From the IMG/VR virus record IMGVR_UViG_2844443253_000007: DNA of 48,088 nt, one strand, 5' to 3'. Position 1 is the first letter of the stretch; the number at the start of each line of letters is the position of its first letter. The position numbers were made by a program, and so were the translations under genes. Positions 1-48,088 of this stretch are shown piece after piece. The notes under the pieces are model-generated. The model was not told the origin of the DNA, did not search any database, and saw nothing but the letters and a program-made list of their open reading frames with translations. This stretch comes from a virus. Its lineage: Duplodnaviria; Heunggongvirae; Uroviricota; Caudoviricetes.

Positions 1-436
1 ATGAAGCGTGAAGAAATCGCTGATCTGATGGCGTTTGTCGTCGTTGCAGAGGAGCGTAGCTTCACTCGCGCAGCAGCCCGCCTGAGCATGGTGCAGTCAG
101 CTTTAAGCCAGATAGTGCGCCGTATAGAAGAACGATTGGGATTGCGGCTTCTGACGCGAACCACGCGCAGCGTTGTACCCACTGAAGCGGGCGAGCATCT
201 TTTGTCTGTTCTTGGCCCTATATTGCATGACATAGATTCTGCCCTGACATCCCTGAGCGATCTGCAGAACCGCCCATCCGGGACAATACGTATTACTACT
301 GTAGAACATGCAGCAAAAACGATATTGTTACCAGCCATGCGCACATTCCTGAAATCGCATCCTGAAATTGATATTCAGCTTACCATTGATTATGGTTTGA
401 CCGATGTCGTTTCTGAACGTTTTGATGCAGGCGTCC
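1..436 (+). pseudogene. LysR-family transcriptional regulator, N-terminal portion only; reading frame runs into IS600 terminal repeat at 437
   Basis: N-terminal HTH typical of LysR regulators (FTRAAARLSMVQSALSQ) followed by start of co-inducer domain; ORF continues only by reading through IS600 end. Confidence 0.8.
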
Positions 437-479
437 TGAGGTGTACTGGCAATAGCGGATACTACCATTTGTTCTTTTT

Positions 480-1298
480 TTAAGCAGCCATCTGATGATA
501 TTTTTCCCTGAAGGCTGCCGGGGAGATATTCCCCAGACGAGAGTGACGACGCTGACGATTGTAGAAAATCTCAATGTATTCCCGTATTACTGAGATGGCT
601 TCATCCCGGTTATTAAAACGATAGTGGCTCAGGCTCTCATTTTTCAGCGTTCCCCAGAAGCTTTCCATCGGAGCGTTGTCGTAACAGTTACCTTTACGCG
701 ACATTGATGTTTTCAGACCAGACTGCTCCTGTATGACCCGGTAATCGTATGCGCAGTACTGTGAACCTCGATCAGAGTGGTGGATTAGCCCGGCAGGTGG
801 GCGCTGGCTCCTGAGCGCCATAAACAGGGCTTTACCTGTCAGCTCTTTTGTCATGCGCTCTCCCATGGCGTAGCCGACAATTTCGCACGTATAAACATCT
901 TTGATGCCAGCGAGGTACAACCATCCCTCCTGTGTGGCAACATACGTCAGGTCCGCCACCCAGACCTGATTTGGTGCTGTAGGAGCGAACGTCTGGTTCA
1001 GCAGATTTGGCGCAACTGGCAGATTGTGGTTCGGGTTCGTAGTCGCTCTGAACTTGCGTTTCTGCTTACAGCGTAGCCTCAGCTCCTTACGAAGACGTGC
1101 AAGTCGGTCACGACCAACGATGATGCCATTCTCTGCCAGCTCCGTCTGGAGCCGCCGGGTTCCATATGTTTCGCGAGTGCGGATATGTGCCACCTTAATC
1201 TCCAGTTTTAGCCGCTCATCACTTTGTTTTCTGTCTGAGGGTTCATGCTGTACCCAGTTGTAATAACCGCTCCTGGATACACCAAATACCTGACACAT
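480..1298 (-). CDS. IS600 OrfB transposase (DDE integrase-like catalytic domain)
   Basis: 272-aa ORF identical or near-identical in 5 copies; rve-type motifs (HSDRGSQY, DNAPMESFW). Confidence 0.9.
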   Translation of the reverse strand: MCQVFGVSRSGYYNWVQHEPSDRKQSDERLKLEIKVAHIRTRETYGTRRLQTELAENGIIVGRDRLARLRKELRLRCKQKRKFRATTNPNHNLPVAPNLLNQTFAPTAPNQVWVADLTYVATQEGWLYLAGIKDVYTCEIVGYAMGERMTKELTGKALFMALRSQRPPAGLIHHSDRGSQYCAYDYRVIQEQSGLKTSMSRKGNCYDNAPMESFWGTLKNESLSHYRFNNRDEAISVIREYIEIFYNRQRRHSRLGNISPAAFREKYHQMAA

Positions 1299-1333
1299 CG
1301 CTTCAATGGGAAATTGTTGTCGCCATTGTTCGA

Positions 1334-1636
1334 TTAACGCGTATTTTTCAGCGACTCCTGTGCAAAATACGCTGTTGCTTTTTTTAATATATCTCGCTCA
1401 AGGCGAGCTTCATTTAACGCCTTACGCAGTTGCAGAATTTCAGATTCCAGTTCAGCCAGCGTGCGGGAACCAGGAGTACCGAGCCCTTTTCTGGCGGCGG
1501 TAACCCATTGTCCTAAAGTGCCTTCAGGAAGGGATAATCGGGAAGCGCCTTCACTGATTGAAAGTTGATTTTCAAGAACCGTTCTGACAGCTTCGGCTTT
1601 GAACTCTTTAGAGTAACGTTGGGTTTTTCTGCTCAT
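1334..1636 (-). CDS. IS600 OrfA (HTH transposase subunit)
   Basis: 100-aa ORF repeated in IS600 copies; leucine-zipper/HTH IS3-family OrfA. Confidence 0.9.
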   Translation of the reverse strand: MSRKTQRYSKEFKAEAVRTVLENQLSISEGASRLSLPEGTLGQWVTAARKGLGTPGSRTLAELESEILQLRKALNEARLERDILKKATAYFAQESLKNTR

Positions 1637-2163
1637 TATTAGCTCCTTCTGATGCCATTCTATTTCAGGAAGGAGTGTCCGTTAAACTCAGGCTACCTCA
1701 CTTATTCTAAGCAACCGGGTAGCATCATACGGGGCAATTATGGCCGCATTACCATACATGCAACTGTACATAGCTGATTACCTGGCTGACACCATGCATT
1801 TGTCAGCAGAGGAGCACGGCGCGTATTTGTTGCTGATGTTCAATTACTGGCAAACAGGAAAGCCAATACCCAAAAACAGGTTGGCAAAAATTGCCCGTCT
1901 GACTAACGAGCGATGGGTTGATGTTGAACCATCCTTGCGGGAGTTTTTTTGTGATAACGGCGACGAATGGATGCATCTTCGGATTGAGGAAGATCTGGCA
2001 TCTGTCAGAGAAAAATTAACCAAAAAATCAGCCGCAGGAAAAGCATCTGTTCAGGCCAGAAGAAGCAGAAAGGAAGCAGATGTTCAAACAAAACAAGAGA
2101 GAAATTTAACAGGTGTTCAAACAGATGTTGGAGTGGTGTTCGAACATGATGCTGGATTTGCCC

Positions 2164-45609: not shown

Positions 45610-46399
45610 GTTGGAGTCATTACCGGTTGAATGTATTAATATGCAATGGTACGTGTCAGGGATTAAAAGATGAACGTAAATTTATTCAACGCATTAATTT
45701 TAAAGGGTTTTATTGTTTGTTGACGAAAACAGGAATCATGTTCGGTCTCTTTTTATCTGTTAAAAGCCAGAAGCATTTCCTTCGCTGACTTTATAGTCAA
45801 CCATAACACACACTCTACTGTCTGAGTCCAGCGTTTTTTAACATTCTTGTTAAGATTATGTGATCTTTAGCGCGGGAGGAAAATATTGATGAAACAGCCT
45901 GCGCCCGTTTATCAGAGAATTGCGGGTCATCAATGGCGACATATCTGGCTTTCTGGCGATATACACGGTTGTCTTGAGCAGTTGCGCCGCAAATTATGGC
46001 ATTGTCGTTTTGATCCGTGGCGAGATTTACTTATCTCAGTGGGAGACGTTATCGATCGTGGGCCGCAAAGTTTACGTTGTCTGCAGTTACTGGAACAACA
46101 TTGGGTTCGTGCGGTAAGAGGCAATCATGAACAGATGGCGATGGATGCGCTGGCATTCCAGCAGATGTCTTTGTGGTTGATGAATGGCGGCGACTGGTTT
46201 ATTGCGCTGGCAGATAATCAACAGAAACAAGCGAAAACGGCGCTGGAAAAATGTCAGCATTTGCCCTTTATTCTTGAAGTACACAGTCGCACCGGCAAGC
46301 ATGTTATTGCTCATGCCGATTATCCAGATGATGTTTGAGGTAGCCTGAGTTTAACGGACACTCCTTCCTGAAATAGAATGGCATCAGAAGGAGCTAATA

Positions 46400-46702
46400 A
46401 TGAGCAGAAAAACCCAACGTTACTCTAAAGAGTTCAAAGCCGAAGCTGTCAGAACGGTTCTTGAAAATCAACTTTCGATCAGTGAAGGCGCTTCCCGATT
46501 ATCTCTTCCTGAAGGCACTTTAGGACAATGGGTTACCGCCGCCAGAAAAGGGCTCGGTACTCCTGGTTCCCGCACGGTGGCTGAACTGGAATCTGAAATT
46601 CTGCAACTGCGTAAGGCGTTAAATGAAGCTCGCCTTGAGCGAGATATATTAAAAAAAGCAACAGCGTATTTTGCACAGGAGTCGCTGAAAAATACGCGTT
46701 AA
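46400..46702 (+). CDS. IS600 OrfA
   Basis: Repeated ORF. Confidence 0.9.
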   Translation: MSRKTQRYSKEFKAEAVRTVLENQLSISEGASRLSLPEGTLGQWVTAARKGLGTPGSRTVAELESEILQLRKALNEARLERDILKKATAYFAQESLKNTR

Positions 46703-46737
46703 TCGAACAATGGCGACAACAATTTCCCATTGAAGCG

Positions 46738-47556
46738 ATGTGTCAGGTATTTGGTGTATCCAGGAGCGGTTATTACAACTGGGTACAGCATGAACCCTCA
46801 GACAGAAAACAAAGTGATGAGCGGTTAAAACTGGAGATTAAGGTGGCACATATCCGCACTCGCGAAACATATGGAACCCGGCGGCTCCAGACGGAGCTGG
46901 CAGAGAATGGCATCATCGTTGGTCGTGACCGACTGGCACGTCTTCGTAAGGAGCTGAGGCTACGCTGTAAGCAGAAACGCAAGTTCAGAGCGACTACGAA
47001 CCCGAACCACAATCTGCCAGTTGCGCCAAATCTGCTGAACCAGACGTTCGCTCCTACAGCACCAAATCAGGTCTGGGTGGCGGACCTGACGTATGTTGCC
47101 ACACAGGAGGGATGGTTGTACCTCGCTGGCATCAAAGATGTTTATACGTGCGAAATTGTCGGCTACGCCATGGGAGAGCGCATGACAAAAGAGCTGACAG
47201 GTAAAGCCCTGTTTATGGCGCTCAGGAGCCAGCGCCCACCTGCCGGGCTAATCCACCACTCTGATCGAGGTTCACAGTACTGCGCATACGATTACCGGGT
47301 CATACAGGAGCAGTCTGGTCTGAAAACATCAATGTCGCGTAAAGGTAACTGTTACGACAACGCTCCGATGGAAAGCTTCTGGGGAACGCTGAAAAATGAG
47401 AGCCTGAGCCACTATCGTTTTAATAACCGGGATGAAGCCATCTCAGTAATACGGGAATACATTGAGATTTTCTACAATCGTCAGCGTCGTCACTCTCGTC
47501 TGGGGAATATCTCCCCGGCAGCCTTCAGGGAAAAATATCATCAGATAGCTGCTTAA
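46738..47556 (+). CDS. IS600 OrfB transposase
   Basis: Repeated ORF. Confidence 0.9.
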   Translation: MCQVFGVSRSGYYNWVQHEPSDRKQSDERLKLEIKVAHIRTRETYGTRRLQTELAENGIIVGRDRLARLRKELRLRCKQKRKFRATTNPNHNLPVAPNLLNQTFAPTAPNQVWVADLTYVATQEGWLYLAGIKDVYTCEIVGYAMGERMTKELTGKALFMALRSQRPPAGLIHHSDRGSQYCAYDYRVIQEQSGLKTSMSRKGNCYDNAPMESFWGTLKNESLSHYRFNNRDEAISVIREYIEIFYNRQRRHSRLGNISPAAFREKYHQIAA

Positions 47557-47812
47557 AAAAAGAACAAATGGTAGTGTCCGCTATTGCCAGTACACCTCAG
47601 TTTATGAATGGCAAAAGGACGTTGATTTGCATCAGGTCTTGTGGAGCCGCTCGCGATTAGGTGAACGCCCAAAAGGGCAGGGAATTACAGGTGCTGATCA
47701 TTTCTGGTTTGGTCATACACCGTTGCGACATCGCGTGGATATTGGCAACCTGCATTATATTGATACCGGTGCTGTCTTTGGGGGCTAACTGACTCTTGTG
47801 CAACTGCAATAA

Positions 47813-48088
47813 TTAAAAATCACCATACTCCTGTGCTGGTTGCCAGAAACCATCTATAAAATCCTCAATCGGAAAACAACTGCCATGGCGGATCCGTTGA
47901 TCGCTCATAGAATAAAGACACTGCTGTTCCGTGTTGTAGACATCCACAACAATATCTTCACAACCGCCATCCAGGTAGCAAACAAAAAGTACCAGCGCGA
48001 ACATTTCATCCCCGAAGTGTGGTGCCGTACCGTTAAGTTTAGGAGAGATTTTACAACGGGGGAATAACCAGGACAAATAACCCGCCAT
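47813..48088 (-). CDS. Hypothetical protein; start coincides with window edge, may be partial
   Basis: 91-aa ORF reaching the last base of the window. Confidence 0.35.
   Translation of the reverse strand: MAGYLSWLFPRCKISPKLNGTAPHFGDEMFALVLFVCYLDGGCEDIVVDVYNTEQQCLYSMSDQRIRHGSCFPIEDFIDGFWQPAQEYGDF

Follow-up and report, generated by a model that had tools for sequence, protein, structure and literature searches.

We found that the window, that is, the whole 48,088-nucleotide stretch held as IMG/VR virus record IMGVR_UViG_2844443253_000007, is with high probability (approximately 0.9) a piece of the Shigella flexneri chromosome in which dispensable DNA acted as a landing pad during the lineage-wide expansion of insertion sequences (ISs) in Shigella. 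Three landing pads would be involved: a Rac-like lambdoid prophage carrying sitABCD, a small tRNA-Gly island, and the right end of the ipaH3 prophage by pphA. Being made up of prophage remnants, the window is a genuine local IS hotspot, with 3–6 times the average IS density of the genome.

Self-BLAST and inspection of element ends identified 13 full-length ISs, one truncated IS600, and fragments of IS911 and ISSfl4 across the window. This agrees with the inventory of an earlier sequence-only reading: four IS600 plus a partial copy (949 bp), four IS1, two IS2, two IS911 plus a 61-bp end, and one IS629. That reading set the IS load at about 18 kb; the elements that it named occupy only 15,605 bp (32.5% of the window), 17.9 kb is reached only if a 2,270-bp group II intron is added, and the figure of about 18 kb only with that intron and a 464-bp ISSfl4 fragment. 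It had overlooked both of these, as well as an island with T7 promoters. Counting 14 full or partial ISs in 48 kb gives a density of approximately 29 per 100 kb, with a Poisson probability of 2e-4 to 3e-7 against the Shigella chromosome average. That average is approximately 5–9 ISs per 100 kb (PMC7373316), and 229–348 ISs are found per Shigella chromosome, with IS1, IS2, IS4, IS600 and IS911 expanded (Hawkey et al. 2020, PMC7373316). The load had been called exceptional; this holds in comparison with E. coli, but not by the standards of Shigella biology (PMC7373316). The window shares with the Shigella IS expansion (Hawkey et al. 2020, PMC7373316) the host, the elements (IS1, IS2, IS600, IS911, IS629/IS1203-type and ISSfl4), the pseudogenes, deletions and rearrangements, and many insertions common across the lineage; it differs not in kind but only in local density. 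An IS pile-up in decayed prophages is a known Shigella pattern and ordinary in itself.

Exact-sequence protein look-ups named the ORFs as IS600 ORF1/2, IS911 ORF2, IS2 ORF1/2 and IS1 ORF1/2. The four IS600 copies are each exactly 1264 bp long with common ends, have terminal inverted repeats beginning TGAGGTAGCC and two consecutive ORFs (100 and 272 aa, annotated IS600 ORF1/ORF2), and differ from one another at 5–9 positions; copies b and d have a 3-bp target duplication, and copies a and c have none. IS1 (768 bp, terminal repeats GGTAATG.., insA of 91 aa and insB of 167 aa) shows a 9-bp duplication at two of its four copies, and copies a and c are identical in sequence. IS2 (1331 bp; IS2 ORF1/ORF2, InsD) has a 5-bp duplication at both copies, and IS911 (1249 bp, ends TGAAGTGG..) carries an orfB named IS911 ORF2. 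The IS629-type element, an IS3-family member of 1306 bp with ends TGAACCGCCCC.., a frameshifted orfB and an ALIL pseudoknot, has relatives at 95–98% identity that are annotated in E. coli as 'IS3 family' or 'IS1203'. The ISSfl4 (IS66 family) fragment was recognized by its IS66-type end GTAAGCGCCCC at 41270 and by a TnpA N-terminus matching NF038385.

Perfect target duplications were observed at eight IS copies (two each of IS2, IS1, IS600 and IS911), as follows.
2153-3483, minus strand: IS2 copy a, inside ydaU; 5-bp duplication GATGC; empty site in the E. coli/EIEC comparator.
8634-9401, minus strand: IS1 copy a, a simple insertion; 9-bp duplication CTGTTAGTA; empty site in the comparator.
11244-12507, plus strand: IS600 copy b, in an ORF6N-domain gene; 3-bp duplication CAG; empty site in the comparator.
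16005-17253, plus strand: IS911 copy a, ORFs intact; 3-bp duplication TCT; intron homing site unoccupied.
29578-33096, plus strand: IS911 copy b (exons 29578-30339 and 32610-33096), a simple insertion in an AAA-ATPase gene; 3-bp duplication ACC.
37959-39289, minus strand: IS2 copy b; 5-bp duplication GCAGC.
44857-45624, plus strand: IS1 copy d, a simple insertion between ipaH3 and pphA; 9-bp duplication GGTTGAATG.
46336-47599, plus strand: IS600 copy d, a simple insertion in pphA; 3-bp duplication GTT; empty site in a different comparator.

These eight ISs are untouched simple insertions, because their target duplications have been retained. The sequence-only reading had also taken the duplicated copies for simple insertions; it counted five of them, and its own list summed to seven. 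A 3-bp duplication arises by chance with a probability of 1/64 each. We compared all duplicated copies except IS911 copy a and IS2 copy b with empty-site comparators (E. coli/EIEC prophages, from E. coli FDAARGOS_944, LR-46, VL7S7 and VL40), and found that six of the eight insertions match uninterrupted homologous sequence, with a single copy of the duplicated bases at the empty site.

The remaining elements and fragments lie at scars and joins.
1-436, plus strand: 5΄ part of pgrR (LysR-type regulator, LysR HTH domain), cut at approximately codon 145 by IS600 copy a.
437-1700, minus strand: IS600 copy a, ORFs intact, no duplication; pgrR is joined to approximately codon 5 of the prophage ydaU.
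17779-18546, plus strand: IS1 copy b, no duplication; left flank the island Rha gene, right flank IS600 position 316.
18547-19495, plus strand: IS600 3΄ partial, 949 bp (IS600 positions 316-1264), joined on its right side to a tail-fibre region.
27000-27767, plus strand: IS1 copy c, lacking a duplication; intR has lost 422 bp here (8218-8639 of another comparator prophage).
28114-29419, minus strand: IS629-type element, no duplication; 350 bp gone (xisR 3΄ part and a DUF1187 gene).
34360-35623, plus strand: IS600 copy c, orfA stop at codon 11, no duplication; approximately 503 bp gone (recE 3΄ end).
41209-41269, plus strand: IS911 left-end fragment (IS911 positions 1-61), cut by the ISSfl4 insertion.
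41270-41733, plus strand: ISSfl4, of which the left end and the 5΄ part of tnpA remain, running straight into a tail-fibre gene fragment at 41734.

Every one of the five ISs without duplications (IS600 copies a and c, IS1 copies b and c, and the IS629-type element) lies at a break in collinearity and, as had been claimed from the sequence, coincides with a truncated gene. Comparison with the E. coli/EIEC prophages sized the three small deletions, which sit in an otherwise collinear prophage arm. The other two scars are large joins, one from pgrR (99.3% identical to E. coli pgrR) to ydaU at IS600 copy a, and one from the island Rha gene into the interior of IS600 at IS1 copy b. IS-adjacent deletion may account for the small deletions, as may pairs of neighbouring insertions that later recombined, and the large joins would be breakpoints of IS-mediated chromosomal rearrangement. 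The sequence-only reading instead ascribed the copies without duplications to deletions or inversions by inter-IS recombination. We consider it rather unlikely that every one of them goes back to homologous recombination between a pair of copies of one IS: near-identical ISs are present in high copy number, and the two large joins and the union of distant loci are consistent with IS-mediated rearrangement, but for each of the deletions of 350–503 bp another copy of that IS would have to have inserted within a few hundred bases, whereas one-ended, IS-adjacent deletion, which is well known for IS1, takes a single event. Moreover, an inversion should leave two IS copies with reciprocally exchanged flanks, and no such pair occurs within the window; the 41733/41734 junction has no IS end whatsoever. 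Inter-IS recombination is not the most economical account of three of the five scars, which IS-adjacent deletion fits at least as well.

Two further features belong to the Rac-like prophage.
22479-25928, minus strand: sitDCBA operon for an iron/manganese transporter, right end of the Rac-like prophage.
26259-26301, no strand assigned: 43-bp att core at the 5΄ end of ttcA, an attP-type junction with the sit arm on its left and the intR arm on its right.

Two matches to one comparator prophage (37961-38003 and 11593-11635) overlap in the att core, a further comparator prophage also points to the attP configuration, and the Rac-like lambdoid prophage is circularly permuted, in the order ydaU..sit, att core, intR..Rha. 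It resembles Rac at ttcA and the sit-carrying lambdoid prophages of EIEC in having intR, xisR, recE, ydaU and ydaV, the same att core in the ttcA 5΄ end, and sitDCBA at the right end; unlike them, it is permuted around an attP-type junction, has no genes for lysis or morphogenesis, and is broken up by 11 ISs. The permutation may go back to two lysogens in tandem from which IS-mediated deletions removed parts, or to a prophage that was excised as a circle and went back in by recombination at an IS. A plain pgrR-to-ydaU deletion would remove fnr and its neighbours, yet S. flexneri keeps fnr, so that the tandem-lysogen route needs at least one further rearrangement. On its far side, the prophage leads via the nested IS911/ISSfl4 fragments to a locus that is approximately 0.5 Mb distant in E. 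coli K-12. The permuted prophage is joined to the right end of the ipaH3 prophage at pphA, where the order ipaH3-pphA-yebW is collinear with the E. coli comparators.
42655-44370, minus strand: ipaH3 effector gene, on the downstream side of a tail-fibre remnant that belongs to the second prophage.

We further looked up the ORFs across seven junctions by exact sequence, and found each on 48–692 contigs, nearly all named S. flexneri and including the finished genomes 301 and 2457T. For example, a 160-aa fusion ORF at pgrR/IS600 copy a occurs on 186 S. flexneri contigs, the junction ORF at the IS600 3΄ partial and tail-fibre region on 350 contigs, and a 203-aa ISSfl4/tail-fibre fusion ORF named 'ISSfl4 ORF1' on 203 contigs. 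This identity across contigs shows that the IS structure is real and fixed in the S. flexneri lineage, and that most events are old within it; the insertions had been called recent, which at the strain level most are not. Misassembly, with repeat copies collapsed or misjoined, had been named as what might undo the IS pattern. Repeats of 0.8–1.3 kb are a classic cause of misjoins, and IS1 copies a and c, like the two IS911 copies, are identical; but the same junctions recur in independent S. flexneri assemblies, the differences among the IS600 copies imply that these were resolved individually, and the flanks equal the empty sites base for base, which makes an artefact very improbable. Still less probable is an origin from the Shigella virulence plasmid pINV rather than the chromosome, because, although the best plasmid matches are S. 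flexneri pINV records and ipaH genes also occur on pINV, the plasmid matches are limited to ISs (25% of the query, in six pieces), the unique DNA belongs to the chromosome (pgrR, the ttcA-borne Rac-like prophage, sitABCD and ipaH3-pphA-yebW), and exact proteins are found on contigs of 4.5–4.8 Mb.

One of the IS911 copies has received a group II intron by retrohoming.
30340-32609, plus strand: group II intron in sense orientation in IS911 orfB (IS position 762/763), splitting IS911 copy b.

The boundaries (GTGTG start and AC end) fit 5΄ GUGYG and 3΄ AY, and the two exons, put end to end, show 0 differences from IS911 copy a. The domain V/VI motif at 32523-32609 is the exact 3΄ end of the insert (Rfam RF00029, 64.9 bits; gathering score 40), and the RT/maturase ORF of 507 aa at 30996-32519 is intact (TIGR04416, 340.9 bits; cut-off 300) and occurs by exact sequence on at least 1000 contigs. 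The intron is probably E.c.I4, judging from its homing target, IS911 orfB, as described in PMC3522654. E.c.I4 homes into IS3-family transposase genes, such as those of IS629, IS911, ISEc16 and ISEc31 (Leclercq et al. 2012, PMC3522654), and, like E.c.I4, the copy found here is full-length, with an intact RT/maturase, in sense orientation at one IS911 orfB position. The low site occupancy reported for E.c.I4 in Shigella (PMC3522654) is paralleled by the identical, unoccupied homing site in IS911 copy a. The sole full-length copy in S. flexneri 2a strains was placed in SHI-1 (PMC3522654), whereas the intron in the window lies in the Rac-like prophage, and this copy may be specific to a sublineage.

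The island is integrated at a tRNA array of the prophage.
13226-13536, plus strand: prophage tRNA array (Met/Ile-type CAT, Arg, Thr and Gly); the tRNA-Gly 3΄ end is the island integration site.
13537-17778, plus strand: truncated tRNA-Gly integrative island, with integrase, promoter repeats, AT-rich repeats, IS911 copy a and the start of a Rha-like gene.
13651-15255: island integrase gene.
15268-15636, plus strand: three 121-bp tandem units, each with an exact T7 class III promoter TAATACGACTCACTATAGGGAGA (15344-15366, 15465-15487 and 15585-15607).
15802-15937: TTAACTTAAAG repeat block, 20–22% G+C, 3΄ of the tandem promoter units.
17656-17778: first 41 codons of the island Rha-like gene, which IS1 copy b interrupts.

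This arrangement, with phage promoters in tandem and an AT-rich block behind them, resembles the T7 primary replication origin. Intact relatives of the island are 6.2–6.4 kb long and bounded by 16–18-bp repeats of the tRNA-Gly 3΄ end. They share an order of integrase, often a DUF4145 or Bro-N gene, one to four T7-group RNA-polymerase promoters and a Rha/KilA/Ant-type gene, followed by a gene of approximately 65 aa, a DUF6971 gene (possibly a scaffold) and an HK97-fold capsid gene. T7-like contigs of 38–40 kb contain the same promoter variants, and literature searches found no description of this family of approximately 6.3 kb. The island is a truncated member of these apparently undescribed tRNA-Gly integrative elements of Enterobacterales. 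We tentatively suggest that an infecting virulent T7-like phage would supply the RNA polymerase that switches such an element on; in that case the family might consist of capsid-encoding satellites of T7-like phages, or else of defence elements that these phages trigger. This dependence on a helper phage is predicted, indirectly, from the T7-group promoters and from their variants in the T7-like contigs.

Satellites are recognized by an integrase, att repeats on either side, and a small size combined with an incomplete set of virion genes; the intact relatives show all of these, and the window copy is truncated. Integrase and att repeats at a tRNA gene are shared with PICI, capsid-forming PICI, P4-like and PICMI satellites; small uniform size, a Rha/Ant-type regulator and, in intact relatives, a capsid-fold gene with a possible scaffold are likewise satellite traits. 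Unlike PICI, P4-like and PICMI satellites, the island has arrays of promoters for T7-group single-subunit RNA polymerases and lacks AlpA, primase, terminase and portal genes; it is far smaller than capsid-forming PICIs. The window copy is dead, broken by IS911 and cut off by IS1.

These results add a carefully mapped example to the well-known Shigella story, in which IS insertions, IS-adjacent deletions and rearrangements dismantle prophages while useful cargo (sitABCD, ipaH3) is spared, and they record a group II intron nested within an IS. The larger value of the analysis may lie in its by-product, the island with T7 promoters. Intact copies are carried by E. coli and Klebsiella strains, in which the family is testable; if these elements are satellites or defence elements triggered by the RNA polymerase of virulent T7-like phages, a mobile element would here sense a lytic phage, and turn it to its own use, in a novel manner.

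We defined repeat families by comparing the window with itself, and set the limits of each element by reading its ends. Copies of a family are lettered from left to right:

437-1700 (-), 11244-12507 (+), 34360-35623 (+) and 46336-47599 (+): IS600a-d, 1264 bp
18547-19495: 3' partial copy of IS600, 949 bp, adjoining an IS1
8634-9401 (-), 17779-18546 (+), 27000-27767 (+) and 44857-45624 (+): IS1a-d, 768 bp
2153-3483 (-) and 37959-39289 (-): IS2a-b, 1331 bp
16005-17253 (+) and 29578-33096 (+, interrupted): IS911a-b, 1249 bp
41209-41269: left end of an IS911, 61 bp
28114-29419 (-): IS629-type copy (IS629 or IS1203), 1306 bp
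30340-32609: complete group II intron, 2,270 bp, inside IS911b
41270-41733: left end of ISSfl4 (IS66 family), 464 bp

An exact-sequence look-up named the encoded proteins as IS600 ORF1/ORF2, IS911 ORF2, IS2 ORF1/ORF2 and IS1 ORF1/ORF2, and nearly all exact matches to the IS-encoded proteins came from Shigella flexneri. Since the repeat families, the element ends and the protein names agree, the inventory of the sequence-only reading was correct. The load of about 18 kb that it had claimed was too high for the IS it listed, which sum to 15,605 bp (32.5% of the window); the figure holds only when the two elements that it did not report, the intron and the ISSfl4 end, are included. The IS911 that ISSfl4 entered is reduced to 61 bp. 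IS600c (stop at codon 11 of orfA), the IS629-type copy (frameshifted orfB) and IS911b (split by the intron) are non-autonomous. Copies differ at 5-9 sites in IS600 and at 0-3 sites in IS1 and IS911. All elements belong to described families, the names IS629/IS1203 and E.c.I4 aside, and the phenomenon is already known.

Perfect target duplications, which had been counted at five copies although the accompanying list summed to seven, were found at eight: IS2a (GATGC) and IS2b (GCAGC), IS1a (CTGTTAGTA) and IS1d (GGTTGAATG), IS600b (CAG) and IS600d (GTT), and IS911a (TCT) and IS911b (ACC). Six of these eight were checked against an uninterrupted homologue, and in each the comparator was continuous and the duplicated bases were present once. 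These empty sites lie in Escherichia coli FDAARGOS_944 for IS2a (ydaU), IS1a and IS600b (ORF6N gene), in E. coli VL7S7 and a further prophage comparator for IS911b (AAA-ATPase gene), and in E. coli VL40 for IS1d and IS600d (pphA). Conversely, all five copies lacking a duplication coincide with a discontinuity:

IS1c: 422 bp of intR missing
IS629-type copy: 350 bp missing, comprising the 3' part of xisR and a DUF1187 gene
IS600c: about 503 bp missing, the 3' end of recE
IS600a: pgrR codon ~145 joined to ydaU codon ~5
IS1b: codon 41 of the Rha gene of a tRNA-Gly island joined to IS600 position 316

The rule used in the sequence-only reading holds: a copy that retains its duplication is a simple insertion left undisturbed, and one without it has since lost a flank or exchanged it.

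The proposal that recombination between IS copies produced these scars stands in part. Three of them are short deletions (350-503 bp) in a prophage arm that is otherwise collinear, and to make them by recombination a further copy of the same IS would have to have lain within a few hundred bases in each case. IS1 is a classic example of an element that deletes adjacent DNA by intramolecular transposition, and for each of the three small scars one such event would suffice. For IS-mediated rearrangement, stronger candidates are the two large joins and the connection to the pphA locus. We compared the flanks of IS600a with IS600c and of IS1b with IS1c for the reciprocal pairs expected of an inversion, and none matched within the window; any partners thus lie outside it. 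The truncated IS600 (18547-19495) has the tail-fibre region on its right, so that no lysis or head gene is left. At 41733/41734, the ISSfl4 tnpA runs directly into a tail-fibre gene, and no IS end is present at this junction.

To address assembly error, which the sequence-only reading had named as what would refute it, seven junction-spanning ORFs were searched for exact matches:

pgrR'::IS600a, 160 aa: 186 contigs, strain 2457T among them
recE', 474 aa: 692 contigs
ISSfl4 TnpA'::tail fibre, 203 aa: 203 contigs, strain 301 among them
partial IS600::phage ORF, 122 aa: 350 contigs, strain 301 among them
IS1c::intR', 217 aa: 48 contigs
IS600b::ORF6N, 215 aa: 105 contigs
IS911 orfB'::intron, 141 aa: 151 contigs

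Two of the seven thus occur in the finished genome of strain 301 and one in that of 2457T, and the other four occur on 48-692 contigs of other strains. This exact recurrence excludes misassembly.

Shigella reference chromosomes carry 229-348 IS each, with a maximum density of 9.26 per 100 kb; all Shigella species show expansion of IS1, IS2, IS4, IS600 and IS911, and substantial expansion was already present in the S. flexneri ancestor (Hawkey et al., PMC7373316). With 14 full or partial IS, or about 29 per 100 kb, the window exceeds the genome-wide rate 3-6-fold (Poisson P from 2e-4 to 3e-7). It is a genuine IS hotspot, as expected of non-essential prophage DNA, and the intact genes left in it are useful cargo, sitABCD and ipaH3. 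The IS finding is real, with counts that were slightly off, and is nothing unusual for Shigella.

The intron has GTGTG...AC boundaries, an Rfam domain V/VI exactly at its 3' end, and an intact reverse transcriptase/maturase of 507 aa scoring above the TIGR04416 cut-off. E.c.I4 homes into transposase genes of the IS3 family, that of IS911 among them, and occupies few of its sites in Shigella (PMC3522654). Likewise, the intron in the window occupies one of two identical IS911 sites, that in IS911a being empty, and its target fits an E.c.I4-like element. Among the accessions listed for the IS911::intron junction ORF were S. flexneri 1a and E. coli, and neither 301 nor 2457T; the insertion may therefore be a younger, sublineage-specific event.

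When halves of the window were compared with E. coli by megablast, the places matched were only clusters of IS matches. Because these searches were uninformative, the unique segments were searched separately:

1-436: left end, 5' part of pgrR
1701-13536: prophage right arm, 96-99% identical to and collinear with a Rac-like lambdoid prophage of E. coli FDAARGOS_944
19796-25700: tail-fibre genes and sitDCBA, 99.2% identical to those of E. coli VL7S7
26259-26301: 43-bp att core from the 5' end of ttcA, present at both ends of the Rac-like prophage in E. coli LR-46
41734-48088: right end, 98.6-99.5% identical to and collinear with E. coli VL40 (tail-fibre gene end, DUF4376, ipaH3, pphA, yebW)

The right arm runs ydaU, ydaV, hok/sok, DUF1367/1364/1133 genes, ORF6N gene and a four-tRNA array, and the left arm intR', xisR', AAA-ATPase gene, gam, recE', ydaE and Rha. 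Rfam models scoring above their gathering thresholds placed four RNA features among these genes:

7819-7993: sok antitoxin RNA (CssrC) next to hok
10940-11141: C4 antisense/isrK pair upstream of the ORF6N antirepressor-type gene
39889-40077 (-): C4 antisense/isrK pair upstream of the Rha antirepressor-type gene
44499-44681: Shigella sRNA CssrB between ipaH3 and IS1d

A plasmid origin of the window was rejected, as matches to the virulence plasmid pINV, like plasmid matches generally, were limited to the IS, and the unique DNA is chromosomal.

The window thus reads pgrR', the right arm of a Rac-like sit prophage, att, the left arm of a prophage of the same kind, IS fragments, and the right end of an ipaH3 prophage at pphA. 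In K-12, pgrR and ttcA map to about 1.39-1.41 Mb and pphA to about 1.92 Mb, and therefore the window also spans a large chromosomal rearrangement. The att core is in an attP-type configuration, with the sit arm to its left and the intR arm to its right; this makes the Rac-like prophage circularly permuted, and an inversion cannot be the source of this junction. Its origin would be either a tandem double lysogen that was afterwards trimmed at both sides or a prophage circle that excised and went back in through recombination at an IS. A plain deletion from pgrR to ydaU would have removed fnr, which S. flexneri presumably retains, and therefore more than one step is needed. A 712-bp direct repeat (21537-22248 and 41734-42445; 98% identical) was rejected as an IS, being a segment of tail-fibre/DUF4376 genes, and its copies belong to two different prophages, with sitDCBA following one and ipaH3 the other, so that both cargoes occupy an equivalent place. 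E. coli VL7S7 and VL40 both carry chromosomal ipaH3; the prophage at their yebY/pphA locus carries sit in VL7S7 and ipaH3 in VL40, and has far fewer IS. These two genomes are useful low-IS comparators for reconstructing the rearrangements of S. flexneri.

Collinearity of the right arm with E. coli prophages ends directly after the prophage tRNA-Gly gene, where the truncated island (13537-17778) begins:

13651-15255: tyrosine integrase gene, 534 aa
15344-15366, 15465-15487 and 15585-15607: T7 promoters

Each promoter is an exact 23-bp T7 class III promoter within one of three 121-bp tandem repeats, with none expected by chance, and matches of the island's non-coding DNA to phage genomes were confined to the promoters. 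A TTAACTTAAAG repeat block of 20-22% G+C follows; beyond it lie IS911a and the first part of a Rha-like gene, which IS1b truncates. The truncated copy is presumably inert. The same element, at 80-95% identity, was found in 381 of 5,426 complete E. coli genomes at the chromosomal tRNA-Gly gene next to actS (8927-9000 in locus L003, which carries an intact relative), whereas the island in the window lies in the prophage-borne tRNA-Gly(UCC) gene (13462-13536). The 18-bp cores of the two differ at three positions (TTCCCGCTGCCCGCTCCA versus TTCCCTTCGCCCGCTCCA), so the window holds a secondary integration site.

A search with the integrase yielded 20 further loci in Klebsiella, Pectobacterium, Citrobacter, Enterobacter, Buttiauxella, Proteus, Morganella, Serratia and others. 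Intact relatives lie in L003 (9001-16342), L008, L011, L016, L020 and L025, and intact copies are carried, for example, by E. coli 21AR0133 and by K. pneumoniae ATCC 13883, the latter with K11- and T7-type promoters. Complete elements measure 6.2-6.4 kb, are bounded by 16-18-bp repeats of the tRNA 3' end, and keep a constant order: the integrase; often a DUF4145 or Bro-N gene; the promoters; a Rha/KilA-N/Ant-type gene; a gene of ~65 aa; DUF6971; and a protein of 330-400 aa. The promoter core CACTATAGG occurs at 38 coding-strand sites within 3 kb after the integrases and once in the remaining 676 kb on both strands. The full promoter varies with the host. The Klebsiella copy has one exact T7 site and two AATTAGGGCACACTATAGGG(A/G)GA sites, which we take to be of the K11 type, and the Proteus copy has AATTAACCCACACTATAGGGAGA; two promoter variants were also found in viral contigs of 38-40 kb, just after a T7-type portal gene or ~1 kb downstream. 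No description of the family was found in the literature searched, the coverage of which was incomplete, and a prior description is possible.

An infecting T7-like phage may, through its RNA polymerase, switch these islands on. With tandem phage promoters ahead of an AT-rich stretch, the island also resembles the T7 primary replication origin. The last island protein (373 aa) had no sequence match in Pfam, PHROG or PDB. However, all 50 PDB matches listed for its AlphaFold model (mean pLDDT 70) were HK97-fold capsids or encapsulins (best E 2e-8), with low TM-scores of 0.27-0.46, and the model suggests a capsid-like protein of the HK97 fold. An encapsulin-type cargo island is a rival reading. 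IMG/VR relatives were found only beside predicted prophages of isolate genomes, with no evidence of packaging. A decayed T7-like prophage is unlikely, since the islands are uniform in size, have att repeats and contain no other T7 genes. These islands may instead be capsid-encoding satellites or defence elements that are triggered by T7-like phages.
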